The notes: generated from the sequence alone by a model not told the origin. A stretch of DNA of 64,000 nucleotides from Candidatus Woykebacteria bacterium RBG_13_40_15 (GCA_001816655.1 MHCP01000015.1:6485-70484); one strand, 5' to 3'; shown: positions 4,297 through 31,801, counted from the stretch's first letter. A program made the numbers and translations.

Positions 4297-4301
4297 ACTG
4301 T

Positions 4302-5996: not shown

Positions 5997-6043
5997 ATGA
6001 TAAGTCAAAACTCAAAATTCAAAAGTCAAATTAAAACTGGTTG

Positions 6044-8454: not shown

Positions 8455-8457
8455 AAA

Positions 8458-8742: not shown

Positions 8743-9250
8743 GATCCAAAATCTTTTTTACATTGCCTTCCGGATCTGGAATTCCTAAAAAATCGAAGTT
8801 TAACAAAGTTCCTGCTGTCTGAATGTGAACATCCCCATAATCAAAAAAATTCTGGGCTATGCCTCCCTTTGAGTATGTAACATCTTGAACATTTTGCAAG
8901 GCCATTTGGGAAACTTTATGATAAAAGATGCTGTAAAAATTTATATCCACGATCCTCTTGTTGGTTAAAATGTAGATATTAAAATACCAAAACAAAAAAT
9001 ACTGAAAAGACGCCCCAAGCACAATTAGCTCCCAGGTAAGAAATGCTAGCAGGGAAGTGCTCGCTGAAATCTGTAAGTTGAAACCCAAAATATTTGGCAA
9101 AAATGGGATAATAATCGGCAGAGCAGCTAAAAAGGCAGCAATTAAAACCCACTTCAAATTTGTAATTATATGTGGTCTAAGTAAAAAAAGAACTTTTTCT
9201 TCTTTTAGCTCACCTTCGAATCGAGCGGGTTCTTGCAAGCTTCCTGCCAT
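8681..9250 (-). CDS. membrane-flanked bacterial PH (bPH_2/YdbS-like) domain protein
   Basis: Two N-terminal TM helices followed by a TNKRIV...GD.HIQTAG beta-rich segment typical of the DUF304/bPH_2 family. Confidence 0.35.
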   Translation of the reverse strand: MAGSLQEPARFEGELKEEKVLFLLRPHIITNLKWVLIAAFLAALPIIIPFLPNILGFNLQISASTSLLAFLTWELIVLGASFQYFLFWYFNIYILTNKRIVDINFYSIFYHKVSQMALQNVQDVTYSKGGIAQNFFDYGDVHIQTAGTLLNFDFLGIPDPEGNVKKILDLVSDNKKAEGRYENRTIQPN

Positions 9251-11165: not shown

Positions 11166-12866
11166 TTGCCAAAAGTGAAAAAAAGATTAATTTTATTTTC
11201 CCTAAGTTTATTTTCCTTAATTTTTCTTATTTCTCCTTCTAATAAGAACGCTTTAGTAACCAAAACTTATGGTGACGACCCAGCAAAACTCTGCTCTCTT
11301 AAATTAACGGGAGATGGGGAGATAGATGGGGTTCCTTATGTTTTACCAGGTGGCACGCTGAGAATACAGCTAACGGGAGCTAAACCAAAGTTAAATGGGT
11401 TTAAGAACCCGGGTGATGTTATGGAATTTAGAAGGGAAGGCGACCCCTACAACGCCAAGAGTAAGATCAGACTACCTATATCTACGGATGGCGATGGAGA
11501 CGGGAATGGTGAATGGGAAGGGAATCCGGAAAGGTATTTTGGCACTTACACTACCAACTACGATAAATATTCTATCTTTCCTGATTGCCCAAACGGCGTC
11601 TCCCCAAACGACAAAACTTTTTATATGTTTAGAGAGCACGAATATAACGGTAAGAAAAGTGGTTTGGCTTGGCTTATCACTCCCCACGACCCACCAAAAA
11701 ACGACGACACACGAATTTCAATATTTATAGCTGGGGTTGAAAAACTGTATGCAATGGTCCCAAATAAATGCCCGGATGGTTCAAAATGTGATCTTACTAG
11801 GTGGCATGAATTCTTAGAAAAACATGAGAATTTTAAAGCCTTTATGGTCAAGGTCTACGGGGACGGGGAAAATGGAAGCCAGGAGCCTGGCTTTACAGGT
11901 AGTTTCATCTCACAGTCGGGCGGTTCGCTGTATGCCTTGGACGATGGGGATGGGGATATCTGCGATAGTAATCCCCACCAAGCATATAAGGCGGATCTTG
12001 ATGCTTGGGATCTTATCAACAAAAAAAAGACTGAAGAGGAGAAAAAAGAACAAGAACAACTGTTAAATAAACTTTATAAATGTGCAGATGCCGATCATTG
12101 GGGTAAGAATGATTTTCTAAGGCCGCGTTTACCTAACGAGATGTTGGAGAAATTACAAGAAGAGAGCCCAGACGCCAATATTGGTCCTAAACTGTTGGAA
12201 ATCAAAGGTATTTGCGAAAATATGCAGGGGATCAGAAGCAGTTGCGATGATGCCTTTAACGAAAATGTAGCGTATAAATTCGCAATATACGGTGTCTTGG
12301 TTCCGCCGATTAAAGGTACTGAAAAGATTGCAGATGATGGTAAGGGAGACATAGCTGACATGCCTTCTGATGGGAGAGATCTGAGTTCTAAAGATTATGA
12401 TGCTTGTGATGATAGTACTGATGGGTTACCAACCTACGCAGTGGGAGAAGACGAAGAAACTATAGCAAGATTGGTCGATGTAGATACTTGTGATGTTTAC
12501 GGCCCGTTGAAAGCAGAAAATAGTGTAAAGGCGATTTTTACATTCACTCCAGTAAAAGCCGATAGCGCGATGGGTTATTTTGAGGGTGAAGGTTATATTA
12601 ATACTCCATTTGGAAAAATACCTGTTAGCGCGGCCGGGATAGCCCAGGCGATTCTCAGTTTAGCTTTGGGTGCAGGTGGTGGCATTGCTTTTCTGCTCAT
12701 GGTCTTTGGCTCTTACAGACTAATTTTTTCCGCCGGCAACCCAATGGCAGTCCAGCAAGGAAGAGAGGTAATTACAGCCGCAGTCGTCGGGTTGCTTGTA
12801 ATCCTCTTCTCTGTTTTTATTCTTAGATTATTTGGGATTGGGGTCTTGGGTTTACCAATTGGTTAA
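11166..12866 (+). CDS. secreted Asp/Gly-rich protein fused to C-terminal T4SS pilin (TrbC/VirB2-like) domain
   Basis: Signal peptide, then about 450 aa ectodomain rich in DGDGDG, then C-terminal GGGIAFLLMVFGSYRLIFSAGNP...REVITAAVVGLLVILF. This matches the pilin repeats in the following ORFs. Confidence 0.55.
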   Translation: MPKVKKRLILFSLSLFSLIFLISPSNKNALVTKTYGDDPAKLCSLKLTGDGEIDGVPYVLPGGTLRIQLTGAKPKLNGFKNPGDVMEFRREGDPYNAKSKIRLPISTDGDGDGNGEWEGNPERYFGTYTTNYDKYSIFPDCPNGVSPNDKTFYMFREHEYNGKKSGLAWLITPHDPPKNDDTRISIFIAGVEKLYAMVPNKCPDGSKCDLTRWHEFLEKHENFKAFMVKVYGDGENGSQEPGFTGSFISQSGGSLYALDDGDGDICDSNPHQAYKADLDAWDLINKKKTEEEKKEQEQLLNKLYKCADADHWGKNDFLRPRLPNEMLEKLQEESPDANIGPKLLEIKGICENMQGIRSSCDDAFNENVAYKFAIYGVLVPPIKGTEKIADDGKGDIADMPSDGRDLSSKDYDACDDSTDGLPTYAVGEDEETIARLVDVDTCDVYGPLKAENSVKAIFTFTPVKADSAMGYFEGEGYINTPFGKIPVSAAGIAQAILSLALGAGGGIAFLLMVFGSYRLIFSAGNPMAVQQGREVITAAVVGLLVILFSVFILRLFGIGVLGLPIG

Positions 12867-12869
12867 TTT

Positions 12870-13523
12870 ATGGCTATTTTTTGCGACGCACCAGAGGCAA
12901 CAGGAAGCGCTGGAAGTGGCTGTATAGTCGATCCCCTGAGGGGTCGGTTTGGTAGTTTGGGGGAACTTCTAACTGCCCTTCTTCCCTTTATCTACGCGCT
13001 GGCCGCAATGGTCGCCTTACTTTTTCTGGTGTGGGGAGGAATTCGCTATTTAACTTCCAGGGGGGATGAAAAACAATTAACTGCCGCGCGCGGCACAATA
13101 ACAAGCGCTATAATTGGCCTTTTGATTATTCTTTTGGTTGGTGTTATTGCGGGAATTATCGCTACTATTTTCAAAATCGATCTTTTTGGCAGTCTCGTGC
13201 CAGCTGCCTATGCAGCCGACACAGTGGATATTGGCTGCGCGGTGAAAATGGCCGGCGGTGTTTGTATCAAAGATGCTTTCCCGAATGTTGGCTCTCTTTT
13301 TACAACTGTAGTTAAAGCGGCCTTATTTACGGCGGCTTTTATTTTTCTCGCTATGACTATCTGGGGCGGCTTTCGCTTTATAAACGCCGGCGGAAACAAA
13401 GACGAAGTTGATGCCGCCAGGGGAGTATTAAGTACCGCTGTTATTGGAGTCTTGATTGTTGCACTCTCTTTAGCAATAATCGAAGTAATTACTAATTTTG
13501 CAGGAGTAGCAAGTATTTTCTAA
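12870..13523 (+). CDS. tandem-duplicated T4SS pilin (two TrbC/VirB2-like domains)
   Basis: Two copies of the motif WGG(I/F)R(Y/F)xxxxGxxxxxxxARGxxxxAxIGxLI, each with two TM helices. Confidence 0.65.
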   Translation: MAIFCDAPEATGSAGSGCIVDPLRGRFGSLGELLTALLPFIYALAAMVALLFLVWGGIRYLTSRGDEKQLTAARGTITSAIIGLLIILLVGVIAGIIATIFKIDLFGSLVPAAYAADTVDIGCAVKMAGGVCIKDAFPNVGSLFTTVVKAALFTAAFIFLAMTIWGGFRFINAGGNKDEVDAARGVLSTAVIGVLIVALSLAIIEVITNFAGVASIF

Positions 13524-13524
13524 G

Positions 13525-13872
13525 ATGGATATTTTTAAACCCGCGCTGGCAGCATCTTCTAGCGCAGACGCATCGGGGTGGCTTGGTAAAATTGGCATAA
13601 AACTGCCTGATCTTGGGGGCTTGGTAGCCAGCGCGCTAAAAATCGCTTTTTTCCTTGCGGCTCTTTTTTTCCTCATCCAATTTATTATCGGTGGCTTTTC
13701 CTGGATAGCTGCTGGTGGGGATCAAAAAGCCCTCGATCAGGCCCGTTCGCGCTTGACTAATGCGGTTATTGGTTTATTAATTGTCGTCGCTGCCTTTGGG
13801 GTCATTTATATTATCTTAAGCGCTTTACATATAAATATCTTTTCCGGTGAAACTATAATTATCGGAAAATAA
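13525..13872 (+). CDS. T4SS pilin (TrbC/VirB2-like)
   Basis: GGFSWIAAGGDQKALDQARSRLTNAVIGLLIVVAAF motif and two TM helices. Confidence 0.65.
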   Translation: MDIFKPALAASSSADASGWLGKIGIKLPDLGGLVASALKIAFFLAALFFLIQFIIGGFSWIAAGGDQKALDQARSRLTNAVIGLLIVVAAFGVIYIILSALHINIFSGETIIIGK

Positions 13873-13930
13873 AGCACCCGGTTGCATAAAAGGCTTTCTA
13901 TGCTTTATAATTTTAAAAGGAGGTGAAATT

Positions 13931-14332
13931 TTGGTTCCTATGAAAAAATTACTCGGATCAGCAGGTCTTTCTGCCGCCCTCTTAGCTATTGCGGCTTCGC
14001 CGGCGTTGGCGCAAACAGAGTTTAAATTTACAGCCCCTGCAAACATACCAAGTTTAGGGGAGATGCTATCCAATATACTGGTGTTGCTATTTTTCTTCGC
14101 CGCTCTCTTGGCTTTTGTCTTCATTGTTATCGGCGGTATCCAGTGGATAACTGCCGGTGGAGATAAGCAAGCCGCAGCCTCGGCAAGAGACCGAATCACA
14201 GCTGCAGTAATTGGTCTTGTTATCGTTGTAGCCGCTTTTGCGATTACAGTACTTATCACATCTGCTCTGCATATTAATATCTTTGCACCGGAGGGAATTA
14301 AACTTCCTGGCGGAGACAGTGTATTCAAGTAG
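13931..14332 (+). CDS. T4SS pilin (TrbC/VirB2-like) with signal peptide
   Basis: GGIQWITAGGDKQAAASARDRITAAVIGLVIVVAAF. The C-terminal ALHINIF is shared with the preceding paralogue. Confidence 0.65.
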   Translation: MVPMKKLLGSAGLSAALLAIAASPALAQTEFKFTAPANIPSLGEMLSNILVLLFFFAALLAFVFIVIGGIQWITAGGDKQAAASARDRITAAVIGLVIVVAAFAITVLITSALHINIFAPEGIKLPGGDSVFK

Positions 14333-14349
14333 GCTATCACGAAATAAAA

Positions 14350-14742
14350 GTGTTAAGCCAATTTAAAAAATTACTCTTTAAATTTCCTATTCTGTTATTT
14401 CTTTATTGCTTTATTTTAAAGCTAGGGGTAGCTTATGCTGGAAATGAGGACCTTGACCTCAACCCTTCCCCAGTAACCGACCTCGTAAAAATTTTCGAAA
14501 ACGCACTTTCTGCGGTAATAATACTTGGGGGCCTTGCTTCTTTTGTAATGATTATTGTTTCGGGCTTTAAATTTATCGCCGCTCAAGGAGATCCAAAGGC
14601 TCTTATGTCTGCTCGCTCGTCTCTACTTTGGGCAATTGCTGGGGTCGCTTTTATTATAATCGCGTGGCTTGTTCTTCAGTTTATAGCTAACTTCACAGGG
14701 GTAAATGTAACAATCTTCCGGTTAAATTTCAATCTTGAGTAG
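14350..14742 (+). CDS. T4SS pilin (TrbC/VirB2-like)
   Basis: SGFKFIAAQGDPKALMSARSSLLWAIAGVAFIIIAW motif and two TM helices. Confidence 0.6.
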   Translation: MLSQFKKLLFKFPILLFLYCFILKLGVAYAGNEDLDLNPSPVTDLVKIFENALSAVIILGGLASFVMIIVSGFKFIAAQGDPKALMSARSSLLWAIAGVAFIIIAWLVLQFIANFTGVNVTIFRLNFNLE

Positions 14743-14821
14743 TTATTAACTAACCTTCCTATTGATTTTTCCAAGGAATCTTTAATTTTTTGCTCCTAAT
14801 ATACCCGATCAATTAAACATT

Positions 14822-15508
14822 CTACGGCTCTTCTACGGCTTTTCCCACAGGCAGGTAGACTATGTGTATTTGTTTTTCCGGGTCTGTCAAACCGTACGAC
14901 CGGAGCCAATTCAGGGCCGCGTCTCTGTAAACGTCCATTGGTTTGTTGTCTATAGTTATAAAAAATTTGTCTGTTGATGGCCAATAAGTAATTTTAAAAT
15001 GATTTCCTGTGTATGGCAACTTTTCTTTTATCTTTTGAACCACTCCCGTTGGGGTCTTACTGCTACCAGTCGTAAAATACCACTCATAAATAAGCTTGTT
15101 GTCGAGCTTTACACTAATCGTATATTTTGTTCCTTGAAGAAGAGTTTCTTCCGGTGTAACGACTGCAACAGTCGTTCCAGGAGAAAGTTCCGACCGAAAT
15201 TTAAAGTCTGGCTTTGTTCCAACTTTCACATCCATATCCTTGACTGGTCGATCAAAAAAGATGTTTATTGTTGGTGCTGTTGAAACACCTTCCTGTTTTG
15301 GCAAAGGCTCCACTCTCGACACTAGCAAAGACGCTTTAGCTGCCTTCAGATCCCCTACATCAAGTGCATTGGTTTTTTCGGTTTCTTTTTTGGGGGGTGT
15401 AAGAGTTGTAATGAGTAGGAAAGCTATCGCTGCTATCGAAAAGACAAAAAGCCAAAATTTTTTATCTTTTAATAACTCATTTAGTTTTTCCAGTTTCATG
15501 GGTGGCAA
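14822..15508 (-). CDS. bitopic membrane protein, possible VirB8-like T4SS component
   Basis: Single N-terminal TM helix plus about 190 aa extracytoplasmic domain. Size and topology fit VirB8. No motif-level support. Confidence 0.25.
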   Translation of the reverse strand: MPPMKLEKLNELLKDKKFWLFVFSIAAIAFLLITTLTPPKKETEKTNALDVGDLKAAKASLLVSRVEPLPKQEGVSTAPTINIFFDRPVKDMDVKVGTKPDFKFRSELSPGTTVAVVTPEETLLQGTKYTISVKLDNKLIYEWYFTTGSSKTPTGVVQKIKEKLPYTGNHFKITYWPSTDKFFITIDNKPMDVYRDAALNWLRSYGLTDPEKQIHIVYLPVGKAVEEP

Positions 15509-16977
15509 TTTACTCCTTTATAACTTGTTGAAACCTCATCTCCTACGTTAAAACTGGGGTTTGGCAATAAATTTCTAAATTCTTGCTCGGGCAGCACTTC
15601 GTTCTCCTCATCCCTTATCATATAATGAAGGTGGTTTACGCCGTGTGTATCTCCAGTTGCTCCCATCAATCCTAGAAATTCTCCCTCTGGGACAAAAGTA
15701 TAGTTCTCTGCCGATTGAATGCAGGAGGAATAGGATTTAAGATGCACATAGTAAGTAATGTAGCTGCTTCCTGTTATTGCTACATAAATTCCGCCATATT
15801 CATCAGTATCCTTTAATAGAAGCCCCCCATTAGTTGAAAATATTGGGGTACCTTCATCGTTGTTTATATCTACTGCCGAAGCCTGATCACCGTAATGAGT
15901 ACCTGATGGATTATACGGCCCTTGAGTAATTTGCCCACTAGTTGGCCAATTACCTCCTATACCACCAGGTGTGCCTGTGCCTGTATCTGATACCGCTAAA
16001 TAAACCTCCCAGATTTTGTCGCAATAAGTCATGCTCCCAAACCTCTCTATTGGCTTGTCACAATCTCCATAATAAGCTGTCCCTGCCTTTTCTATCTCAT
16101 CCTCCTTTTCCCAGGCATCGTCGCTATCATTATAATCGTATTTTGTAAATTGGGCCCGATCGCACTCGTCAGAAGGCGCTCCACTATCACATTTTAACTT
16201 CCAAGCCGCGCCATAAATCGCGTTGCGGATATTACGGACATCTGGGTTGGGCGAATAAGTAGTTACCCCTGCTTCAACTACAGCTGTCTTATATGTGCAC
16301 CACGCGCAAGGAGGGTCAGTAACATCTCCACAATCTAGATCGCTTGGTCGAAAACCATAGTCCTCCATATAGTCTACTGACATTTGCATTGGCCCAATGG
16401 CCGAACATCCATTAGGCTCTCTATTTTCAGGATCTATCCCTTCACCGTTTATACCATTTGGGCTACCGGTATAGACGTCTTTGCTATAATCATCGATCTC
16501 TTCATCCGAATAGCCAAAGATGTGGGGACCTTCAATCACAGCGATCCCAACAAGAACCCCCGCCGGCACTTTAGCCCAAGCACCAGCTGCTTCGAAAAGA
16601 CTTTTTAGTTTTGCTGAGCAGGTATCTTCTTCCCCTTCCTCTGGTGGTTCTTCTCCCAACGCCAGTTTACAGTACCCCGGAACTAAATTGTTGCCGCCGG
16701 TTATTGGTACGGCTGCTTCTGCGCTTCCCACGGCTCCCCCAGCCCCACCTCCAAACAAAACAACCACAATAATCACCGCCATTATTACTACTGAAGCGAT
16801 TAACACTAAACCCCCTAGAAAACTTCCTATCCCCGCCCCAGCTATTGCGATGGCGGCTCTAGTTCCAACTTGTTTTATTAACTGCTCCTGAGCAGCACTA
16901 CCCCGGGCCTGCTGAGCTATGTTAGTAAGATCACTTAGGGATGGGCCTTGTTTTTGTTCTTCTTCTTCTTGTGGCAT
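15496..16977 (-). CDS. bifunctional cell-wall hydrolase: lytic transglycosylase-like domain plus M23 peptidase (VirB1/CwlT analogue)
   Basis: N-terminal TM helix. Cys-rich lysozyme-like segment with GPMQ. C-terminal M23 motifs HYGDQASAVDI (HxxxD) and NHLHYMI (HxH). Confidence 0.6.
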   Translation of the reverse strand: MPQEEEEQKQGPSLSDLTNIAQQARGSAAQEQLIKQVGTRAAIAIAGAGIGSFLGGLVLIASVVIMAVIIVVVLFGGGAGGAVGSAEAAVPITGGNNLVPGYCKLALGEEPPEEGEEDTCSAKLKSLFEAAGAWAKVPAGVLVGIAVIEGPHIFGYSDEEIDDYSKDVYTGSPNGINGEGIDPENREPNGCSAIGPMQMSVDYMEDYGFRPSDLDCGDVTDPPCAWCTYKTAVVEAGVTTYSPNPDVRNIRNAIYGAAWKLKCDSGAPSDECDRAQFTKYDYNDSDDAWEKEDEIEKAGTAYYGDCDKPIERFGSMTYCDKIWEVYLAVSDTGTGTPGGIGGNWPTSGQITQGPYNPSGTHYGDQASAVDINNDEGTPIFSTNGGLLLKDTDEYGGIYVAITGSSYITYYVHLKSYSSCIQSAENYTFVPEGEFLGLMGATGDTHGVNHLHYMIRDEENEVLPEQEFRNLLPNPSFNVGDEVSTSYKGVNCHP

Positions 16978-17080
16978 TGATAGGTCCTTTACTTCTATTG
17001 TAATTTTTTAAACTCTAACACGCAACCACCACCCTTTCTTGACTTAGTAACTTTAAATGAATTAAAATTTATCTAGAACT

Positions 17081-18763
17081 ATGTTCCTGCCCAAAAAATT
17101 TGTACTTACATTGGTAGCCGCGATTTCTGCCTTTTTTTTGTTTGGCGCGCCTGTTTTTGCGCTTGAGCAATCAATCACTTCTACAACCCCTAGTGCAACT
17201 ACCTCTGTAGGAGGCGGGCAAGTTATGGGTTGGCAGAGTGCTGTTGGTGATTTTTTTGGAGATGTCGCGGGGGGTATGATGAGTACCGCGACGAAACTCA
17301 TGGGTCAAGCTCTAGATACGGCATTAGACCACTTTTTAATTAAGGGTGCAACTGGGTGCTTATCCTCCGACAAGGGTTGCCAGCAGGAACAAGTTCAGGA
17401 GGTTATGAATGGAACGCCGATTGAAAAAATGAGCAATCCGGGTTTTCTTCATGTTTTAGCTTCCGGTGGGGACCAGCTTATGACTATGCCAATACCAATA
17501 GATACCGGTACCTATTTCGCCTCGATTAACCCTTTTAAACAGGCGCAGGCTGCTGACACTGGTTTTGATGAACTTCAAAGATCGACCGGATTATTGCGCC
17601 TTTGGGTAGTCTTGAGAAACTCTGCCTATGCCCTGTCTGTACTTGTCCTTGTAGTCATTGGCTTTATGATCATGCTTCGGGTGCCGCTTGATCCACGCAC
17701 AGTGGTTACGGCGCAGAGTGCAATCCCAAGGATAATTATTGCCCTTATTTTAATTACGTTTAGTTTTGCGATCGCCGGCCTGTTTCTTGACTTTGGCAGG
17801 CTAGCGGTCCAATCGGTTCATTGGGTATATGGCCAAGTTGGTATTAGTTGGGGCGGAGCCTTGTTGAAGCTTATCGGGGTAATTGTTTTTGGTAGCGCAT
17901 CAATTGGAGCTATCATGGGGTTTGGCCTGCCGGGATTTATTCTTGGAGCGGTAATCGGCGTCATAATCGTTGGGGCGGTCCTTCTGTATCTTTATTTCAA
18001 AATGATTTCTCGGTTTGCCCAATTCGTCGTTCTCTCTATATTCGCGCCAATGGTTTTCTTATATGCCGCTGTTCCCGGACAAACAAGCGCTGCTACAAAT
18101 TGGTTCAAGCGTCAGCTCTCCAATATTCTCGCCACACCGGCCATACTTTTCATGGTCGCCCTAGCTCTTGTTGTAATTAATACCGGTATCCCTAACCCCC
18201 TGTATCGTGGTAACCCTTTTAATCTAGCCGATAGCTTTACTCCATTTTTAGTCGCGTTTGGTATCTTGTTTGCCGCGACACGTGCTCCGGAAATAGTCGA
18301 TGATTTACTTGGTCTAAAGAAAGCGCCCGGAGCTAACGCAGGGTTGACTGGCGCTACACTTATGGGTGGTCTAACCACAGCAACTAGAAATAAAGAACTC
18401 ATAAAGGGTGTTGGATCGCGACTTGCCGGCGGACCGCTTGGAAAGGCGGCTGGTGCCGCCGCTGCACCCCTTCGGGCTGGCGCAAATAAGCTCACAGGTG
18501 GTTACTTCGACCGAAGAGCAGAAAGGGCTAGAGATGACAGAGCTCTTAAGCTGGCAAAGGCGAGTTATGATGAGCAACAAAGAAGAGATCGAGGAACGGA
18601 ACTTTTAAAACAACAGGGTTATATTAAAGGAGAAAAGGGAGAGCAGGGAGAACAAGGAGAGCAGGGAGAACAAGGAGTCTCACTTATCAATCCTGGGCCT
18701 CAATACCCTGCAAAGCCAGCGGGAGGTGGGACAAGCCAGGAGGATCAAAATCAAAATACATAG
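17081..18763 (+). CDS. VirB6/TrbL-like polytopic membrane protein with C-terminal collagen-like GEQ repeats
   Basis: Signal peptide and at least 6 TM helices in the central region. C-terminal GEKGEQGEQGEQGEQG is encoded by a tandem 18-nt DNA repeat at about 18628-18675. Confidence 0.45.
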   Translation: MFLPKKFVLTLVAAISAFFLFGAPVFALEQSITSTTPSATTSVGGGQVMGWQSAVGDFFGDVAGGMMSTATKLMGQALDTALDHFLIKGATGCLSSDKGCQQEQVQEVMNGTPIEKMSNPGFLHVLASGGDQLMTMPIPIDTGTYFASINPFKQAQAADTGFDELQRSTGLLRLWVVLRNSAYALSVLVLVVIGFMIMLRVPLDPRTVVTAQSAIPRIIIALILITFSFAIAGLFLDFGRLAVQSVHWVYGQVGISWGGALLKLIGVIVFGSASIGAIMGFGLPGFILGAVIGVIIVGAVLLYLYFKMISRFAQFVVLSIFAPMVFLYAAVPGQTSAATNWFKRQLSNILATPAILFMVALALVVINTGIPNPLYRGNPFNLADSFTPFLVAFGILFAATRAPEIVDDLLGLKKAPGANAGLTGATLMGGLTTATRNKELIKGVGSRLAGGPLGKAAGAAAAPLRAGANKLTGGYFDRRAERARDDRALKLAKASYDEQQRRDRGTELLKQQGYIKGEKGEQGEQGEQGEQGVSLINPGPQYPAKPAGGGTSQEDQNQNT

Positions 18764-18822
18764 CAAAATGGGGTCACTTCTCGCATTACTGCTTAAAGCA
18801 ACCCCATGTGTGATCACCTCCT

Positions 18823-21681: not shown

Positions 21682-21972
21682 TTGTCGTTCTCCTTGGTGT
21701 GTTTTAATGCCGCTTTCGCAGCTTCTTTAAGTGGTTGTATTCAAACTCCGCTTGACGCGATGCGTCTGCGGAAGGGAATTGAATCAAACCCACTTGGTGA
21801 AGCGCAAAAAGCAGCTCACACCAAGGGGTGTCTACCCGCCGGCCGGCGGGCAAGCATCCCTTGGTGTTTTTCACCAAGAAGCTATACCGAATTAAGAATT
21901 TATAATTCAGAATGCAGAATTTCTCCTTCTTTATTTTCGAATATTTACTTTTTAAAGTTCTACAAAAAGATA

Positions 21973-22003
21973 AGCGGGCTCTAGGTATTTCCCAGAGCCC
22001 GCT
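21973..22003. repeat. boundary hairpin AGCGGGCTCT-loop-AGAGCCCGCT (island 1)
   Basis: 10-bp stem with 11-nt loop. Near-identical to the hairpin at 47434-47464. Confidence 0.6.
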
Positions 22004-22364
22004 TCACCACCAGCCACCGGCTGATGTCTCGCCATTACGGCGAGATCTGCTCTGGGCTTTTCTCAATGATTAATTTGAAGCTAAATTTCATTTTAAATTT
22101 CCTCGTGCTTATTCTAGCACAAATCGTTGAGTTTGTCAAACCTATAGTCACTCGACTACATCTCGCGCCTGTTTCTCTGCGAGATATAATACGCAAGTAT
22201 TACCTGCCCGACGCTAAAGCTTTGGCAGGCGGGCATTCTGCGTATTGTTTCCTTGCAGGATATAATAATCCGTCTCCTTTACTTTATTTTTGATCTATTT
22301 TGAACTGGTTGCTTTTACCAACCAAATAGTCAATAATAGTGGGCGAAGAAGAGGGACGATATTA

Positions 22365-22395
22365 CAGTAAGCAGAAAGCAGTAAGCAGTAAGCGG
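22365..22395. repeat. CAGTAAGC/CAGAAAGC short tandem repeat block
   Basis: cagtaagcagaaagcagtaagcagtaagcgg. Related motif at 22828-22870 and at 44501-44523. Confidence 0.6.
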
Positions 22396-22415
22396 GTTGG
22401 AACTAAAAATCAACT

Positions 22416-22847
22416 TTGCTAGCTGCTACAAGTTTTCTACAAAGTGCCTCGGCAGAGAGCAGAAAGCAGATGCCCAACAGTTCGAGTTTCGAAAAAATAA
22501 AGGCTTGGCAAAAAGGTCATCTATTAGCCTTGGAGGTTTACAAAGTTACCAAGTCGTTTCCGCGGGAAGAGGCTTTCGGTCTAACATCTCAGTTACAACG
22601 TGCTGCAATATCCGTCCCCACCAACATAGCAGAAGGTTACGCAAGACAAAATAATAAGGTCTTTGGAACATTTTTAGATACGGCTTACGCGTCGCTAGTT
22701 GAAATTAAGTATTTATTAAAGTTTTCTGCAGAGGTTGGTTATATTTCGAAACAAAATTTTATTAAATTAGAATCTTTAGCTGACGAGGTCGGCAAGGTTC
22801 TTTGGAAATTTATGAAGGAGGTAAAATCAGTAAGCAGTAATCGGTAA
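22416..22847 (+). CDS. four-helix-bundle protein (23S rRNA intervening-sequence protein / Avd-like family)
   Basis: 143 aa. Pattern KIKAWQKGHLLALEVYKVTKSFPREEAFGLTSQLQRAAISVPTNIAEGYAR is characteristic of the PF05635-type four-helix-bundle family, which includes DGR Avd. Confidence 0.6.
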   Translation: MLAATSFLQSASAESRKQMPNSSSFEKIKAWQKGHLLALEVYKVTKSFPREEAFGLTSQLQRAAISVPTNIAEGYARQNNKVFGTFLDTAYASLVEIKYLLKFSAEVGYISKQNFIKLESLADEVGKVLWKFMKEVKSVSSNR

Positions 22848-22934
22848 GCCTAATTGGAAAGCAGAAAGCAAACGCTAATTGTTATCTGCTAACTAACGGG
22901 TGCTAACTGTTCAACTGCTAACTGCTAACTGACT
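22828..22934. repeat. short tandem repeats: CAGTAAGC-like followed by four copies of GCTAACT
   Basis: cagtaagcagtaatcggtaagcc...gaaagcagaaagc, then gctaact at 22888, 22902, 22917 and 22924. GCTAACT approximates the reverse complement of AGTAAGC. Confidence 0.6.
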
Positions 22935-23459
22935 GTGCAGCAGCATCCTGTACCGCAAAACATAACTGGCTTTGAGTTTAAACTGATTGGCTTTCTGACT
23001 ATAAAGCAGTTTGCTTATTTGGCGGGGGCTTCTATCCTCTCTTTTGCTTGCTATTTTATATTGCCCGGCCTTTTGCGTTGGATGATTATCTTACCAGTTA
23101 TGGCGGCGGGAAGTGCTTTTGCCTTTCTGTCCCTAAACGGTATGTCTTTCGACAAATGGATCATTGCCTTTATCCGATTGATAAGCAACCCCCAGATAAG
23201 AGTTTGGAGAAAAACACCTAAGGTTATTAGCTTTCTAGCCCCAGAATTTTCCTACTATTTACGCCGAGGAGTAGAAGCGGCACAACCCACTCAAGCACCA
23301 AGCAAAGATCGTCTTAAACTCTTTGTTAGCCAACTTCAGGAACAAAAGCCAGAGGATCAGTTGGACGTTTTTGAAAAAAGCCGGCTCTCAAAGTTAAATT
23401 TTGCTGCCCGAGAGACTCCCCAAACACCTATACCGGACCAGGAAGGAGTGGCCCCTTAG
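22935..23459 (+). CDS. small two-TM membrane protein, possible VirB3-like T4SS component
   Basis: 174 aa with two adjacent TM helices near the N-terminus. Its position in the T4SS locus fits VirB3 or a VirB3-like protein. Confidence 0.3.
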   Translation: MQQHPVPQNITGFEFKLIGFLTIKQFAYLAGASILSFACYFILPGLLRWMIILPVMAAGSAFAFLSLNGMSFDKWIIAFIRLISNPQIRVWRKTPKVISFLAPEFSYYLRRGVEAAQPTQAPSKDRLKLFVSQLQEQKPEDQLDVFEKSRLSKLNFAARETPQTPIPDQEGVAP

Positions 23460-25262
23460 ATGACTGATATAACTGTCCCTCTAACAAGGGTCGGTAACCT
23501 TACTTCTGATCTACCGGAAAAAGCACCACCCTACCCAGGGGAAGCCCTCGCGGGAAGGTCTCCAAAGAGATTAGTCGAGGAGCAAAAAACAGGAGACTTG
23601 AAACTAGCATCCGCAACGCCTTTTAAACCAGTCGCTTCGATAAATTATCCGGAGAAAAATATTTACGTCGCGCCGCTTAATAATGTTCAGCCTAGCCGTG
23701 GCTTGAACCCAGTTGGTAGCCGAGGAGTGGTTTCCTTACCTATTCAGGGCGAGAGGGTTTTTGAAATCGAGGACGCAATCAGAAAGCCTGTTGAAGCACG
23801 TATCGAAAAACTTTTATCCCAATACGAGTCTCCACCCGTGGAGCAGGTAAAACCTCTACTCCCCCCACAAGGGCCTCCTCCTGTAGGAACGGGGGAAACA
23901 ACTGAGCAAGCTAAGACGGAGCTAGAGAACATTAAAGAGGCGGTTCGCAACGAGCTGCTAAAAAAGGGCGGCAAAGATCAAACCTTGACACCGATCCCGT
24001 CTGGGACGCCAGCAGCTACTGCCCCAGTGGCTGTTCCTTCAGCTTCGTCGCCGCAAATACAATCCCCACAAACAGCAACGATCCCAGCGGAGCAACAGCC
24101 AAGCGCGCCAAGCATTATATCTATACCTACGCCAACAGCGCCCAAGCAGGATGAAACTGAGATCCACAAACGGGTGGAGCCGCCTCAACCAGAACAGATT
24201 GTATCGCCACCAACAGAAGCGGCCAAAATTGGGCCTCCTACAACTCAAACCGCCCCCTTGCAGACAACTCCACCACCAGGCGAATCGGCGACAAGTAAGC
24301 TTTTTTCGGAGGCGGAAAAATTGCAAACTGAGCTAGCTAATTTACAAAAGGAAGTTTCGGAACAAAAGTTGGGGGGAAAAGGCGAGGGAACCGCGCAAGT
24401 CGGCGCCCCTACAACCCCCTCTTCTATTCCTGTTTCTATGCCTGTTCCCAATATTGTTGTTGCTCCTACTCCTCCCCAACCTACCCCTGTAACTACCCCT
24501 CCGGCTCAAAAATCTGCTCAAGATGAACAGATTAGGAGGCTAGTTACTGAGAGGTCGGAGCTACTTAAGCAAATTAATGATCTTAGCAGCAAGCTTCAGG
24601 ACGAGAAAACCCAAAAACAGACTGCGCAAGAGGATGCAGACTCATTTCGGAAAAAAACCAGCACCTTGGAGAAGGAAAAGGCCGATATTTTAGGGCAAAG
24701 CGAGGCTATTAAAGCAGACTTAGTGAAAAACCAGCAGGTCCCTACTTCAACGGAGGGCCTCCCTAAGGAAATAGAAAATCTACGCTCCCGCCTTTTAGTG
24801 GCTGAGCAAGCGAAAAAGGTAGACGAAGAAAAAATAAACCAACTAGAAGATTTAATTGCTGGGGCAAAGCAAATACCGCAAGGAAAAGTCGATCTAGTTG
24901 AACCGGAAAAAGCTAAGAGTGTAGAAACTTTATCTAAGCAGGGTGTAGTTAAAGTTGTTAAACCCGACCTTGCAGTTGGGAAAATGGCTCCTTCGTTGAC
25001 AAGCGCCCCCAATGTAATAAATGGCATCGTTCGGGACAAGGGGGGATTGCTTCTTTCAAATGTAATTATAGTCGTAAAGGATAGTACGGGCGACCCGGTA
25101 AGGGCCTTGAAGACGAATAAGATTGGTCAGTTTGCAATTTCGACGCCCCTACCAAATGGCACATATATTATGGAGCTAGAATCGACAACTAATAATTTTA
25201 ATAATATTCAGGTGGAACTCAAAGGCGAGGTATTGCCACCAATAGAGATAAAGGCTACCTAA
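23460..25262 (+). CDS. Pro/Gln-rich coiled-coil protein with C-terminal carboxypeptidase-regulatory-like beta-sandwich
   Basis: Long low-complexity Pro-rich region, coiled coil, and C-terminal GIVRDKGGLLLSNVIIVVKDSTGDPV...GQFAISTPLPNGTYIM. Possible envelope-spanning T4SS scaffold. Confidence 0.35.
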   Translation: MTDITVPLTRVGNLTSDLPEKAPPYPGEALAGRSPKRLVEEQKTGDLKLASATPFKPVASINYPEKNIYVAPLNNVQPSRGLNPVGSRGVVSLPIQGERVFEIEDAIRKPVEARIEKLLSQYESPPVEQVKPLLPPQGPPPVGTGETTEQAKTELENIKEAVRNELLKKGGKDQTLTPIPSGTPAATAPVAVPSASSPQIQSPQTATIPAEQQPSAPSIISIPTPTAPKQDETEIHKRVEPPQPEQIVSPPTEAAKIGPPTTQTAPLQTTPPPGESATSKLFSEAEKLQTELANLQKEVSEQKLGGKGEGTAQVGAPTTPSSIPVSMPVPNIVVAPTPPQPTPVTTPPAQKSAQDEQIRRLVTERSELLKQINDLSSKLQDEKTQKQTAQEDADSFRKKTSTLEKEKADILGQSEAIKADLVKNQQVPTSTEGLPKEIENLRSRLLVAEQAKKVDEEKINQLEDLIAGAKQIPQGKVDLVEPEKAKSVETLSKQGVVKVVKPDLAVGKMAPSLTSAPNVINGIVRDKGGLLLSNVIIVVKDSTGDPVRALKTNKIGQFAISTPLPNGTYIMELESTTNNFNNIQVELKGEVLPPIEIKAT

Positions 25263-25982
25263 ATGGCTAAACCAAAAAGAATACCACTAACTCAAGAGCA
25301 TTTGGATATCGAAGATATTCGAGATGATGTTGTTATTCTAAAAAGTGGGACCGCGGCTGCGGTTCTCCAAACAACTGCTATTAATTTTGATTTACTGAGC
25401 GAACAGGAGCAAGATTCAGTCATTTTTGCATTTGCGGGCTTACTAAATTCTATAACCTACCCCATTCAAGTGTTGATACGCAGTAAAAGAGTTGATATTT
25501 CCAATTACATATTAAGGATCGCCGAGGCAAAGAGGAAAACCCATAATCAAAGCTTGGTCTCCCAAATTGAAAAATACGAAAACTTTATTAAGGATCTCGT
25601 ATCAAAAAACCAGGTTCTTGACAAGAGATTTTATGTAATAATCCCTTATTTTAATATTGAGCTTTCTCAATTAACTGGGGGTCTGGGATCAATTTTCCAC
25701 CCAAAGGCCGTCAAAGAGCATAAATGGGCCACTTTGGAAAAAGCGAAGGTAAATTTGGAACCAAAAGTGGAGCACCTCATAAAGCAATTTTCGCGGCTTG
25801 GGGTAAAAACTATCCGTTTAACAACCGAGGAGCTAGTTGAACTTTATTATGATCTTTACAATGCTGATATCGCGCGCGAGGAGAAAGCGGCGCTTGGAAC
25901 CAAAGAATATACGACACCAATAGTTGAGCCAAAAATTACACCCGTAGCAACTCCGCCAGCAGAGGAAGGGGTCAAACAGTAA
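25263..25982 (+). CDS. VirB4 N-terminal-domain-like protein (possible split VirB4, part 1)
   Basis: VVILKSGTAAAVLQTTAINFDLLSEQEQDSVIFAFAGLLNSITYPIQVLIRSKRVDI matches the N-terminal pattern of Gram-positive VirB4/TrsE-like ATPases. Stop lies 3 nt before the next ATG. Confidence 0.45.
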   Translation: MAKPKRIPLTQEHLDIEDIRDDVVILKSGTAAAVLQTTAINFDLLSEQEQDSVIFAFAGLLNSITYPIQVLIRSKRVDISNYILRIAEAKRKTHNQSLVSQIEKYENFIKDLVSKNQVLDKRFYVIIPYFNIELSQLTGGLGSIFHPKAVKEHKWATLEKAKVNLEPKVEHLIKQFSRLGVKTIRLTTEELVELYYDLYNADIAREEKAALGTKEYTTPIVEPKITPVATPPAEEGVKQ

Positions 25983-25985
25983 TCC

Positions 25986-27800
25986 ATGACATTTAATATT
26001 TTTGGAAAAAAACAAAAAACACAACCAGAAAATCCCAATCTACAAAGTACCCGAGACAAAACCGCGAGATTCCTTGGTACTGGAATGGTTGATGTAAAGG
26101 ATGTTATTGCACCAGCAGCAATACAGGTCGAGTTTGATCATGTAAAAATCGGCGAAACATATTTTAGAACCCTTTTAGTTGCTGGTTACCCCAGATTTAT
26201 AGGAGCTAACTGGCTTGCCCCTTTAATCAACTTTGATCACACTCTTGATCTTTCCTTTTTCTACTACCCTGTAGAAACCAGGGGTATTTTAAGCGATCTG
26301 AGACGTAAAATAGCAGAAATGGAAGCAACAATCGAATCTGATTTGGAATCTGGTAGGGTCCTTGATCCAGCCATTAGGGCCTCCCTTGAAGATGCCCAAG
26401 AGTTGCAGGAGCAGCTGGCTACTGGAATTGAAAGGTTTTTTCAGTTTTCCTTTTATATCAAAATACCCGCAAATAGTTTGGAGGAATTAAATAAAATAAC
26501 GCGGGAGGTGGAAGCTGTTGCTGGATCCTTGTTGATAATAACTAAACACGCAAGCTTGCAACAAGAGCAGGGATTTCAAAATACCTTACCTTACTTTTCC
26601 GACAAATTATTCTCAATTAGAAACATGGATACAATAAGTCTTGCCACAACCTTCCCCTTTACAAGTTCCGAATTAACGGCAGACGAGGGTGTCCTCTACG
26701 GAATAAATGAGCATAATGGATCCCTAGTTATTTTTGACCGTTTCTCGCTAGAAAATGCTAACAGTGTTGTTTTTGCAAAATCGGGAGCAGGAAAAAGCTA
26801 TCTAGTTAAGTTGGAGGCTTTGCGCTCTTTAATGTTTGGTACCGAAATAATCATCATCGACCCTGAAGATGAGTACAAAGATCTAGCGGTGACCATCGGC
26901 GGTGAATATATAAAATTCGCCCAAAATCAGCCGGCAAAAATTAACCCATTTGACCTTTCCGGAATCTATGAAGAAGGGGAGAATGAGCTTGGATTAAAGA
27001 TCTTATCCCTTCACGCTCTTTTTCGAATAATGTTAGGGGAACTTACTCCTACCGAAGATGCCATTCTTGATCGGGCCTTAATAACTACTTATAAACTCAA
27101 GGGGGTTACTCCAGATCCTGCAACACAAACTAAAGAACCTCCAATTTTGGCCGATTTATACAATGTGCTGCAGAATATGGCGGAGTCTTCAGCAAGGGAA
27201 ATGGCGCAAAGGCTGGAAAAATTCATAAAAGGCTCGCTCTCTGGTATTTTTGACCAGCCTAGTACAGTTAACTTGTCCAACTCATTCACAGTTTTCTCCA
27301 TTAGAGAGCTCGAAGACGAGCTGCGTCCTATTGCTATGTTCATTGTCCTTGATCATATCTGGACTAAGATTAAGAGGGATAGAAAAAAGAGACTTCTTGT
27401 AGTGGACGAGGCTTGGTATTTAATGAAATACCAAGATTCTGCTTCATTTATGTATTCTATGGCAAAGAGGGCTCGTAAATACAACTTGGGGGTAACAACT
27501 ATCACGCAGGATGTTGAGGATTTTTTGAACAGTGACTACGGTAAAGCAATTGTTACGAACTCTTCCATCCAAGTTTTGCTTAAGCAGAGCCCGGCTGCAA
27601 TTGATAAAATTGTTGAAGTATTTTATTTATCGGCTGGTGAAAAAAATCTTTTACTTTCGTCAGATATTGGTGAGGGGCTGTTCTTTGTAGGCCCCAATCA
27701 TGTAGCAATTAGGATCCAGGCGTCGCCTGATGAACACATGCTTTTAACACGCGGGCAGCAAACTCCCAAACCCACGGAAGAGCCGCCTAAGGCTCAATAA
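25986..27800 (+). CDS. VirB4/TraE/CagE-family conjugal-transfer ATPase (C-terminal ATPase part)
   Basis: Walker A VVFAKSGAGKSYLVK and Walker B RLLVVDEAWYLM (DEAW is typical of VirB4). 604 aa. Confidence 0.75.
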   Translation: MTFNIFGKKQKTQPENPNLQSTRDKTARFLGTGMVDVKDVIAPAAIQVEFDHVKIGETYFRTLLVAGYPRFIGANWLAPLINFDHTLDLSFFYYPVETRGILSDLRRKIAEMEATIESDLESGRVLDPAIRASLEDAQELQEQLATGIERFFQFSFYIKIPANSLEELNKITREVEAVAGSLLIITKHASLQQEQGFQNTLPYFSDKLFSIRNMDTISLATTFPFTSSELTADEGVLYGINEHNGSLVIFDRFSLENANSVVFAKSGAGKSYLVKLEALRSLMFGTEIIIIDPEDEYKDLAVTIGGEYIKFAQNQPAKINPFDLSGIYEEGENELGLKILSLHALFRIMLGELTPTEDAILDRALITTYKLKGVTPDPATQTKEPPILADLYNVLQNMAESSAREMAQRLEKFIKGSLSGIFDQPSTVNLSNSFTVFSIRELEDELRPIAMFIVLDHIWTKIKRDRKKRLLVVDEAWYLMKYQDSASFMYSMAKRARKYNLGVTTITQDVEDFLNSDYGKAIVTNSSIQVLLKQSPAAIDKIVEVFYLSAGEKNLLLSSDIGEGLFFVGPNHVAIRIQASPDEHMLLTRGQQTPKPTEEPPKAQ

Positions 27801-28884
27801 TTTTTCCATCAACCATATTTAATACACGGGCCCGCTTTTTAAATTCCGCTGTTAGAAGATCGAGGCTCGTGGTCGTAATTAATATCTGGCGTGCGCTAAT
27901 GTGAGTAAGGAGCAGCCCCCTGTTCTTTTCGTCAAGTTCGCTCGTAACATCGTCGAGAAGTATTACCGGAGGCTCGCCGAAAATTCGCGAAAAAAGCTGG
28001 GCTTGGGCAAGGTTCAATAAAATTATGGCTTGGCGTTTTTCTGCTCTGGAACCAAAGGGGCCTAAATCTTTCTCCAAAATTGATTGTCCTAACTCTTCCT
28101 CTACAACTAGTTTGAGGTCGTCTCTGTGTGGGCCAAAAGTAGTCATTATTAACCGCCGTTCTACACCTCGTTTATTTTTAAGGGCTCGTAAGAACTCTTT
28201 CTTACTTAGTCCCTCACTCTCTAGATTAATTGGGACCGTGTATTCAATACGAGCATTTTTTCCTATCGTTCCTTTTGAGATTTTATTTAGAATTCTATTT
28301 AAACTGCTTATTTCTTTTTCGCGCTCCTGCCAAAGTTTTATGCCGTACTTGGCAAGAAGCCTATCCCATGTTTCAAGTTGTTCCTCAGTCGCATTTCCAC
28401 CGGAGATTTTGAGAAGCTTGTTCCGATTAATCAGGGTTTTATTGTAATTAATCAAATTGAAAAGGTAACCTCGATTTATTGTTGCGATTAATTTGTCCAG
28501 CCAAACCCTTCTAGCGGCTGGTGGCCCTCCAATTAGTTCTATTTCTCCTGGGTGAAAAAGGACTGTTGCTAGCCTGCCCAAAAGATAAGTAGCTGGCTTT
28601 GTTTTATTATTGATTATTATCTTGGTTTCTCCCTCTCGGTAAAGGAATATACGAATACTACCCTTACTAGTCTCACCGAATATCTCAGCGTTACTCTCGT
28701 TCCAATTGATCGCCTCGCTTCTTGTTCCATGAAACGGTTTGCCATAAGAGAGCAAATAAACAGCCTCGATGAGGTTTGTTTTCCCCTGACCATTGCCTCC
28801 AACAACAATTGTTACTCCGCTACCCAATTGTAGGTCGGAAATATCTAGATTTCGGAAGTTTCTTATGGAAAGGGTTTTCAACAT
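27787..28884 (-). CDS. recF: DNA replication and repair protein RecF
   Basis: N-terminal LSIRNFRNL...IVVGGNGQGKTNLIEAV Walker A. SMC-like signature near the C-terminus. Confidence 0.85.
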   Translation of the reverse strand: MLKTLSIRNFRNLDISDLQLGSGVTIVVGGNGQGKTNLIEAVYLLSYGKPFHGTRSEAINWNESNAEIFGETSKGSIRIFLYREGETKIIINNKTKPATYLLGRLATVLFHPGEIELIGGPPAARRVWLDKLIATINRGYLFNLINYNKTLINRNKLLKISGGNATEEQLETWDRLLAKYGIKLWQEREKEISSLNRILNKISKGTIGKNARIEYTVPINLESEGLSKKEFLRALKNKRGVERRLIMTTFGPHRDDLKLVVEEELGQSILEKDLGPFGSRAEKRQAIILLNLAQAQLFSRIFGEPPVILLDDVTSELDEKNRGLLLTHISARQILITTTSLDLLTAEFKKRARVLNMVDGKIIEP

Positions 28885-29985: not shown

Positions 29986-30090
29986 TTTTATTACTTAATA
30001 TTAATAATAGTCGTAGTAATAGAGGCAGAAAAAAGTAAATTTTATACTACAACAAGCAGGGGAAAGGTTTGTGGAAAAACGCAAAAGTTA
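29986..30090. promoter_or_regulatory. candidate oriC segment (dnaA-dnaN intergenic, AT-rich with DnaA-box-like TGTGGAAAA)
   Basis: AT-rich TTAATATTAATAATAG plus a one-mismatch DnaA box. Position is classic between dnaA and dnaN. Confidence 0.35.
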
Positions 30091-31799: not shown

Positions 31800-31801
31800 T
31801 T

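Follow-up and report, generated by a model that had tools for sequence, protein, structure and literature searches.

We analysed a 64,000-nucleotide stretch (hereafter the window) of the metagenome-assembled genome (MAG) of Candidatus Woykebacteria bacterium RBG_13_40_15, a Microgenomates member of the candidate phyla radiation (CPR, or Patescibacteria), and conclude that the gene cluster at positions 11166-27800, whose genes are lettered A to N here, is very probably a vertically inherited chromosomal type IV secretion system (T4SS) of the kind typical of Patescibacteria. The cluster encodes a cytoplasmic-membrane translocon of MPF-FATA (Gram-positive mating-pair formation) ancestry, comprising a PrgI/VirB3 protein, a VirB4 that is split into a TrsD protein and an ATPase body, and a probable, very diverged VirB6. 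This class of system has already been published (2023-2025), and the locus brings no new principle to it. Domain scans covered about 50 open reading frames (ORFs) across the window. The products of genes A and I are identical to NCBI proteins of this genome, on a contig of 162.8 kb.

Genes K to N lie on the plus strand. Gene N (25986-27800) is a VirB4 ATPase of the MPF-FATA type, which scores 394.6 bits against NF045971 (conju_CD1110; cut-off 325), carries the Walker A motif AKSGAGKS and also matches P-loop_TraG and AAA_10. It aligns to positions 185-734 of the 752-position NF045971 profile, and the N-terminal ~185 positions that are absent from N are supplied by gene M (25263-25982), a TrsD/TraC-like, separately encoded VirB4 N-terminal domain (NCBIfam TrsD, E 4.3e-10, 39.8 bits against a curated cut-off of 200) that also aligns to VirB4 profiles at positions 19-238 and whose counterparts in other loci are flagged as PF26593, TraC-like. 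Gene K (22935-23459) encodes a PrgI/VirB3-like protein with two transmembrane (TM) segments, identified by PF12666 (50.9 bits, gathering score 27) and by a hydrophobic block of two-TM size at residues 26-69. Between K and M lies gene L (23460-25262), which encodes a Pro-rich coiled-coil protein with a C-terminal beta-sandwich (weak CarboxypepD_reg match, E 8e-4), no TM segment and no signal peptide; counterparts of 530-984 aa occupy the same position in the related loci L081, L083, L087, L088, and L090, and L is a CPR-specific component. An initial annotation, made from the sequence alone, had named a VirB4 ATPase, a VirB3-sized two-TM protein and a Pro-rich scaffold, all of which were recovered here as N, K, and L, respectively.

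The locus runs convergently into recF, the 3' end of which shares 14 nt with gene N, and the adjoining origin-region housekeeping block (27787-33034) comprises recF, dnaN, and dnaA on the minus strand, followed by rpmH (ORF 31662-31799), rnpA, and yidC on the plus strand, assigned with Pfam and, for rpmH, from the ORF. Cumulative GC skew is lowest at 28-32 kb of the window, while Escherichia coli-type DnaA boxes are neither clustered nor enriched in the window (18 observed, 13.5 expected). The adjacency to recF-dnaN-dnaA pointed out in the initial annotation is thus real, and the comparison of locus position relative to dnaA that it had proposed was carried out. A scan with the VirB4 query returned at least 596 related stretches, 80 of which, 56-70% identical to the query and with named members that are mostly CPR MAGs, were kept; in most of these 80 loci PrgI-(L)-TrsD-VirB4 adjoins dnaN-dnaA, and the chromosomal position is fixed across relatives. 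Many of the public records concerned (L001, L004, L007, and others) are titled 'uncultured Gammaproteobacteria/Pseudomonadales bacterium' while carrying the CPR-type PrgI-TrsD-VirB4-dnaN-dnaA arrangement, and their titles look taxonomically wrong.

In two relatives, L081 and L083, the gene order of the window is kept almost throughout the region that each covers. L081 extends from dnaA to a SpoIID gene upstream of the pilin genes and has an extra PMT gene within the pilin array, and L083 has a HEPN/nucleotidyltransferase pair inserted between the SpoIID gene and the first pilin gene. In two further relatives, L087 and L088, the same core extends from VirB4 past the hydrolase gene to the first pilin gene. 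Between the window and L081 or L083, VirB4 is 76-80% and TrsD 62-66% identical, in genomes whose DnaN (39.5%) and RecF retain only 38-40% identity. Since these values lie far above those of DnaN and RecF, the VirB4/TrsD ATPase module is under unusually strong purifying constraint, which speaks against a decaying mobile element. Apart from gene I, the locus also has a GC content of 0.39-0.48 and a GC content at third codon positions (GC3) of 0.36-0.43 (eight locus genes tested), inside the range of the housekeeping genes.

The pilin genes form a plus-strand array at 11166-14742, in which all five small ORFs match PF18895 (T4SS_pilin; gathering score 26.6 bits) with a total of six domains. Pilins B (12870-13523; 55.1 bits, E 8e-15, in two stretches), D (13931-14332; 39.6 bits), and E (14350-14742; 31.4 bits) pass the gathering score, and A (11166-12866; 22.7 bits) and C (13525-13872; 24.3 bits) lie slightly below it. 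All six domains can be aligned gap-free over a common two-helix core, hhh-GG-h-x-h-xx-G-D/N-xxx-h-xx-AR-xx-h-xx-A-hh-G-h, with pairwise identities of 20-53%. The proposal in the initial annotation of five ORFs with six TrbC/VirB2-like pilin domains, one ORF being internally duplicated, as well as the PF18895 search that it had suggested, are both borne out by these matches, with three of the five ORFs above the gathering score. D and E carry a leader peptide. B has two tandem pilin domains (B1 and B2, 30% identical) and four TM helices. Pilin A begins with a signal peptide, continues with an ectodomain of ~460 aa of no known family and ends with a VirB2-like pilin domain (aa 486-566), its hydrophobic segments being residues 4-26, 485-517, and 532-566; a homologue of A that is 59% identical (P0044) carries PF18895 in precomputed annotation, as does the L083 counterpart of C, while that of A is flagged weakly.

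Each of the five window pilins has its own best match in L083 and in L081, in the same order and at 36-63% identity. For A these are pil467 in L083 (38% over 566 aa) and pil372 in L081 (36%), and for B pil233 in L083 (56%) and pil355 in L081 (46% over 206 aa), both long enough for two domains, so that B is a conserved covalent double pilin. C, D, and E find their best matches in L083 in pil102 (59%), pil135 (60%), and pil125 (63%), with best matches in L081 of 45%, 54%, and 48%, respectively. Because the own best matches occur in the same order, the paralogues are older than the divergence of the three genomes and have been maintained individually, which favours specialised subunits of a hetero-oligomeric pilus over antigenic variation. 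In having several divergent pilin genes in tandem the array resembles the VirB2 paralogue arrays of Bartonella and Anaplasma; unlike in those arrays, each window paralogue has its own ordered best match in genomes whose DnaN is only 39.5% identical, which argues for old specialised subunits rather than a recent amplification for antigenic variation. As no VirB5 is present, pilin A is plausible as a pilus-displayed adhesin, tip or minor pilin. The number of pilins, which the initial annotation had found striking, is unexceptional, since both the count and the 20-53% identity fall inside the published ranges: 441 pilin arrays of 2-11 genes, with a mean identity of 25% and a maximum of 54%, have been described and are abundant in Microgenomatia (PMC12102498).

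The product of gene H (17081-18763, plus strand) is a VirB6-like polytopic membrane protein, highly diverged, with six or more hydrophobic segments and a Gly/Gln-rich tail. No sequence profile passes for H and it has no Pfam match, the nearest being a weak NCBIfam match to the Gram-positive VirB6 analogues (CD3337/EF1877, E 0.0025); none of its 32 homologues has a Pfam domain either. The AlphaFold model, however, has a core with predicted local distance difference test (pLDDT) values of 85-95, and the top five PDB fold matches retrieved with Foldseek are all TrwI/VirB6 of R388 (7o3v, 8rtd, 8rt9; probability 0.99-1.00, target-normalised TM-score 0.46-0.51, E 0.02-0.08). The VirB6/TrbL-like polytopic protein of the initial annotation is thus recovered in its hydrophobic segments and its predicted fold. 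VirB6 homologues were reported to be scarce in Microgenomatia, with divergence suspected (PMC12102498), and H with its 32 Pfam-less homologues fits, at the level of fold, the idea that Microgenomates do possess the 'missing' VirB6 in diverged form.

Two membrane-anchored proteins are encoded on the minus strand between the pilins and H. Gene G (15496-16977) encodes a wall hydrolase in the VirB1 role, with a TM region at residues 41-87 and a C-terminal M23 domain (48.2 bits; PDB matches to DipM and M23 chains). The initial annotation had described a lytic transglycosylase joined to an M23 hydrolase, of which the M23 part holds, while the transglycosylase part is confirmed by no profile, and a profile built from three homologues matched no SLT structure in the PDB. 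The middle region does show an E...GPMQ motif pattern, and SLT_2 is matched in one homologue (Pfam, E 0.041), so that this domain is possibly lysozyme- or SLT-like, though unproven. Gene F (14822-15508) lies on the same strand as G and overlaps it; its product is an N-terminally anchored Ig-like protein (Big_5, 25.1 bits against a Pfam gathering score of 23.6; one TM segment at 15-39) that is 55% identical to its L083 counterpart.

Among the ~50 ORFs scanned there was no relaxase, type IV coupling protein (T4CP), VirB11 or integrase domain, nor any MOB or TrwB/VirD4/TcpA domain. A Walker A motif occurs in only four ORFs of the window (VirB4, DnaA, RecF, and an AAA_33 kinase), so VirB4 is the only T4SS-type ATPase in these 64 kb, and the absence of a VirD4-type coupling ATPase, relaxase and VirB11 claimed in the initial annotation is supported by both the domain scans and the Walker A count. 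The loci of L081, L083, L087, and L088, all of which span the VirB4-to-VirB6 core, contain no relaxase, T4CP or integrase either. Around the locus in the window we found no integrase domain and no long flanking repeats, and within it no Pfam or NCBIfam match to VirB5, VirB7, VirB9, VirB10 or VirB11. Together with the CD1110-type VirB4, the synteny beside dnaN-dnaA in most of the 80 loci and the published accounts, these absences uphold the earlier reading of the locus as a conserved T4SS-like machine of CPR bacteria rather than a plasmid module or an integrative and conjugative element (ICE).

The closest described counterpart is the SEML1_0004-0019 cluster of Candidatus Southlakia epibionticum ML1, which was found to be essential by transposon sequencing (Tn-seq), lies directly after dnaA-dnaN-recF and encodes VirB4, PrgI, VirB6-like proteins, hydrolases and six pilins, but no coupling protein or relaxase (PMC10633639). 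More broadly, the survey of Quinonero-Coronel 2025 delineated a distinct Patescibacteria clade of VirB4 related to MPF-FATA, with TrsD, PrgI, VirB6, and VirB2-like proteins widespread, relaxases nearly absent and the systems located close to dnaA, dnaN, and rnpA, and the description is repeated in a 2025 review (PMC12102498; PMC12857230). The window shares with the S. epibionticum system and this VirB4 clade the chromosomal position beside dnaA-dnaN-recF, the row of PrgI, TrsD-like and VirB4 genes, a probable, diverged VirB6, the wall hydrolases, the roughly six PF18895 pilins transcribed divergently and the lack of a relaxase or T4CP in the cluster. S. epibionticum, in contrast, belongs to the Saccharimonadia and has a lysozyme and a Cys-protease, where the Microgenomates window has an M23 hydrolase; the window further differs in the Pro-rich L between PrgI and TrsD, the pilin with a ~460-aa ectodomain, the two-domain pilin ORF and the lack of a recognised NTF2-like VirB8 candidate.

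Conjugative MPF-FATA systems (pGO1 trs, pIP501 tra, pCF10 prg, and CTn2 CD1110) resemble the locus in the CD1110-family VirB4, the TrsC/PrgI-TrsD-TrsE order, an anchored wall hydrolase (bifunctional in those systems, the SLT half being unproven in G) and the lack of an outer-membrane core. Unlike them, the locus has no relaxase, T4CP or PrgB-type adhesin and is not part of a mobile element, and it has VirB2-like pilins, which are absent from MPF-FATA. Two-helix VirB2-like pilins, the predicted VirB6 fold of H, the pairing of VirB3 with VirB4 and, presumably, VirB4-driven pilus biogenesis are instead features in common with the R388 VirB/Trw system (MPF-T; 7o3v, 8rtd), from which the window differs in lacking VirB5, VirB7, VirB9, VirB10, VirB11, and VirD4 and in its monoderm envelope.

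By analogy with the R388/VirB structures, VirB4 hexamers with the TrsD N-domain would dock on PrgI/VirB3 and the VirB6-like H and pull pilins out of the membrane. The subunits would then polymerise on the VirB6 platform, and the resulting pilus or conduit would pass the wall opened by G and reach the host bacterium. We surmise that the five pilin genes probably have different structural roles, which could be those of a major subunit, a covalent double subunit (B) and an ectodomain subunit (A), the last acting as an adhesin or tip that replaces the missing VirB5. Judged from the Tn-seq results in S. epibionticum and the R388/VirB machinery, the system would serve the epibiotic lifestyle by moving proteins or other macromolecules between symbiont and host, and not conjugation.

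Several points weigh against this interpretation. PF18895 proteins are not known to form a pilus in any CPR bacterium. No VirB8 homologue and no NTF2-like VirB8 candidate were recognised in the locus, and the assignment of H as VirB6 is a match between a predicted fold and known structures at E 0.02-0.08, not a sequence-profile match. Furthermore, a T4CP or relaxase may be encoded elsewhere in the genome, beyond the 64 kb, and T4CP homologues are located far from virB4 in many CPR genomes (PMC12102498).

Gene I (18823-21681, minus strand) stands apart from the rest of the locus; it is one of four genes overlooked in the initial annotation, along with M (TrsD), F (Big_5), and J (23S_rRNA_IVP). 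Located in the slot between the VirB6-like H and PrgI, it encodes a soluble protein of 952 aa, rich in Trp (3.4% versus 0.9%) and Arg (8.1% versus 3.8%), with no signal for the general secretion pathway. Searches of Pfam, NCBIfam, PHROG, PADLOC, and the PDB gave no match for I. A full scan of 1.84 billion representative proteins identified nine distant relatives of 28-32% identity, and five relatives with both flanks visible (four of the nine and the 894-aa slot protein of L083) all occupy the same slot on the strand opposite to PrgI and VirB6 (L081, 10001-12925; L083, 11865-14549; L087 and L088, both 6001-~8800; and L090). On the shorter contigs L089 and L092 only the side with the VirB6-like neighbour is visible, and one further relative has no context. 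Divergence is extreme by the standards of the locus, as I aligns to the L083 slot protein at 34% over only 105 aa, whereas all the other locus genes are 38-80% identical over most of their length, and the family looks mosaic, the N-terminal and C-terminal parts of I matching different relatives. An AlphaFold2 model built from an alignment of 10 sequences reached a pLDDT of 52 and a predicted TM-score (pTM) of 0.35, Foldseek gave nothing meaningful, and among the conserved residues W, Y, P, G, and R predominate.

With a GC content of 0.54 (0.52-0.54 across the region) against 0.42 for the window, gene I was at first taken for an insertion. The excess is synonymous, as GC3 of I is 0.62 against 0.36-0.44 in 14 other window genes (0.51 in a retron-type reverse transcriptase gene), and it recurs in all seven relatives, L081, L083, L087, L088, L089, L090, and L092 (0.45-0.70 versus 0.30-0.53 for the conserved neighbours), hence in eight of eight genomes in all. 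A foreign insertion was rejected on account of this recurrence and of the identical slot in L081, L083, L087, L088, and L090, to which L089 and L092 add partial context. The high GC3, the divergence and the mosaicism of I may instead mark a hot spot of recombination or replacement. The idea that I is a cryptic T4CP or relaxase was likewise rejected, since it contains no Walker A motif and no conserved His pair or HUH-like motif, and has no profile, PDB or fold match.

The slot itself recurs well beyond the relatives of I. An ORF of at least 450 aa on the opposite strand is found there in 21 of the 51 VirB4-related loci with enough upstream sequence, and 20 of these 21 occupants have no TM segment. 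They are enriched in Trp and Arg (medians 1.7% and 7.1%, against 0.6% and 4.0% in recognised genes), yet phmmer recognises no similarity among them, and hhalign matches none of them to the I-family profile. In S. epibionticum, where SEML1_0011 carries a KEGG permease label, the corresponding gene differs from that of the window, which is soluble, on the opposite strand and, as far as testable, unrelated. Few of the 22 slot ORFs scanned against Pfam, a set that includes two ClpB-like ORFs and one PGK set aside as housekeeping, match any family. Exactly one of them matched TrwB_AAD_bind and DUF87, the domains of a T4CP-like ATPase, and although the scan does not report which member this is, it is probably the 1188-aa ORF of L077 (Daviesbacteria; 2557-6123, minus strand). 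The slot may thus hold a coupling-type ATPase in some lineages.

Upstream of I lies a structured 5' leader of 199 nt (21682-21880, minus strand; minimum free energy -95.8 kcal/mol, z -8.84). It is built from five related segments that alternate between sequences resembling the anti-Shine-Dalgarno (CUUCUUGGUG, CCCCUUGGUG) and sequences resembling the Shine-Dalgarno (SD) element (CACCAAGGG, CACCAAGUGGG, and the genuine SD, CACCAAGGAG). Segments 1 and 2 pair in a helix that is preserved in all six sequences. In the inner hairpin the sequence has changed wholly while the pairing is kept, with compensatory double changes at 12 of 32 pairs (four sequences), and in the minimum-energy fold the 5' segment closes onto the SD in three of four genomes, the flanks differing in sequence but being complementary in each. 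Rfam has no match in the leader or in the unit upstream of it, and a metagenome scan for the leader motif gave 85 matches, nearly all of them by chance in GC-rich coding DNA, with L134 and L169 as the only genuine ones. In this small sample, these features suggest that translation of I would be tightly gated by SD sequestration, and the leader is a candidate cis-regulatory RNA of a new kind, confined to a narrow clade within the CPR.

Further upstream, at 21962-22139 on the minus strand, are a promoter and a unit of ~140 nt (fold z -5.7) that ends in a strong intrinsic terminator. The promoter, TTGACA-17-TAGAAT, agrees with the consensus at 11 of 12 positions, its conservation extending to L081, L087, L090, and L134, the terminator consists of 14 GC-rich base pairs followed by a T-run, and the unit contains a 17-codon mini-ORF (MKFSFKLIIEKSPEQISP) with its own ribosome-binding site. 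It is either a small RNA or a leader-peptide/upstream attenuator of I. Between this unit and PrgI, an element resembling an rRNA intervening sequence (IVS) occupies 22365-22935 on the plus strand, in which ORF J (22416-22847) is flanked on both sides by a 7-nt repeat (AGCAGTA... / ...TAACTGC) in inverted arrays. The inverted arms (22365-22394 and 22874-22935) are 76-87% complementary and form a stem-loop like that of such an IVS; the GTG start of PrgI follows directly. J matches the IVS-encoded protein (IVP) family PF05635 (23S_rRNA_IVP) at 122 bits and bAvd at 37 bits (cut-off 40). PrgI has an IVP as its neighbour in L083 and L088 and an IVP-like ORF upstream of it in 4 of the 80 loci (L002, L057, L065, and L072). 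Like repeat arrays without an IVP ORF are found in the leaders of L083, L088, and L169, and a related repeat occurs at window position 44494-44523. We also considered whether the Avd-like J and the reverse transcriptase at 46 kb form a diversity-generating retroelement that acts on the T4SS; this was rejected, as two blastn settings revealed no pair of template and variable repeats, the reverse transcriptase is of retron type and J falls below the bAvd cut-off.

We propose that I is a clade-specific, rapidly evolving and translationally gated accessory of the T4SS. A bolder hypothesis, to which we assign a low probability, is that the slot is a hypervariable cargo or specificity module of CPR T4SSs: a large, soluble, W/R-rich occupant, represented in the Woykebacteria-related group by the I family with its persistently high synonymous GC and an SD-sequestering leader that keeps translation silent, would either pass into the host cell as an effector or set the host or substrate that is engaged, and its turnover by recombination or replacement would drive adaptation of the host range. 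The related idea that the whole machine is a contact-dependent translocator that injects effectors into the host bacterium, with I and its non-homologous slot counterparts as the translocated effector, also seems rather unlikely to us. In its favour, I is soluble without a general-pathway signal, stays within the locus in every relative that shows both flanks, evolves much faster than all its neighbours while looking mosaic, has raised GC3 in all eight genomes and sits behind a leader that suggests tight control; the occupants of the slot in 21 of 51 loci are soluble in 20 cases and W/R-enriched though unalignable, and protein export is one of the options offered by Wang 2023 (PMC10633639). 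Against this, no toxin, enzyme or translocation-signal motif was found in I and no immunity-like gene was identified beside it, its structure model is poor, there is no T4CP for substrate recruitment, and a fast-evolving structural or adaptor subunit would look alike.

DNA uptake in the manner of Helicobacter ComB or the Sulfolobales Ced system, with host DNA as a nucleotide source, is about as doubtful in our estimate. Import of DNA or other macromolecules was proposed in the 2025 survey (PMC12102498), and CPR bacteria are without nucleotide synthesis (PMC12102498; PMC12857230). The similarity of the locus to CedB is weak, however, at 52.3 bits far below the cut-off of 700, and that to CedD (29.8 bits, cut-off 600) is likewise generic VirB4-fold similarity. 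No comEC, dprA or comF was found in the locus. In S. epibionticum the loss of comEC ends competence but not growth, while the T4SS is essential (PMC12857230), an observation that bears on the ComEC route only and not on import via the T4SS itself. With CedB so far below its cut-off and comEC dispensable for growth in the one species tested, the label 'competence-like' in the initial annotation found no specific support. Least probable by a wide margin is a decayed or domesticated Gram-positive-type ICE from which relaxase, coupling protein and integrase have disappeared: the VirB4 is indeed nearest to the CD1110 (CTn2) ICE family, TrsD and PrgI are MPF-FATA components and the published phylogeny suggests that the T4SS was acquired from monoderm conjugative elements (PMC12102498), but the dnaN-dnaA adjacency holds in most of the 80 loci, VirB4 has diverged far less than DnaN and RecF, no integrase or repeat boundaries are seen in the window, and GC and GC3 of the locus genes, gene I apart, are those of housekeeping genes, so that domestication is at most ancient, as published, and the locus is not a recent remnant.

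A few neighbouring features deserve mention. Next to the first pilin gene, a minus-strand gene at 9263-11047 encodes a SpoIID-domain protein (Pfam, E 2.4e-20) with an N-terminal anchor and a coiled coil. The SpoIID gene adjoins the first pilin gene in L081 and lies two genes away from it in L083, where the HEPN/nucleotidyltransferase pair intervenes, and the protein shares 57% identity with its counterpart there. Its place beside the pilin array is conserved, and it may contribute to wall remodelling as an associated factor, with synteny as the ground for any membership in the system. Upstream of the SpoIID gene, a conserved minus-strand trio at 6505-9250, syntenic in L083, encodes a 649-aa one-TM protein without family match, a small DUF5657-like protein and a bacterial PH-domain protein. 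The remainder of the window is housekeeping in nature (tmRNA and SmpB, LeuRS, TsaD, GroEL, MetRS, TatD, L25, and the origin block). After groEL, a GC-elevated island at 44500-47500 holds a reverse transcriptase of 352 aa (46374-47432; best PADLOC matches to retron-type models, E 5e-56), a 295-aa ORF on the minus strand and a 161-aa ORF on the plus strand, both ORFs without family match.

Epibiotic growth of the one CPR bacterium tested depends on the secretion system to which the Woykebacteria locus very probably belongs, and this gives the class its importance. If the hypothesis of a cargo or specificity module were true, the slot protein would be the first substrate or specificity factor to be proposed for this secretion system in CPR bacteria. 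Gene I and its leader offer a concrete and testable lead to what the CPR T4SS may carry or what may set its specificity.

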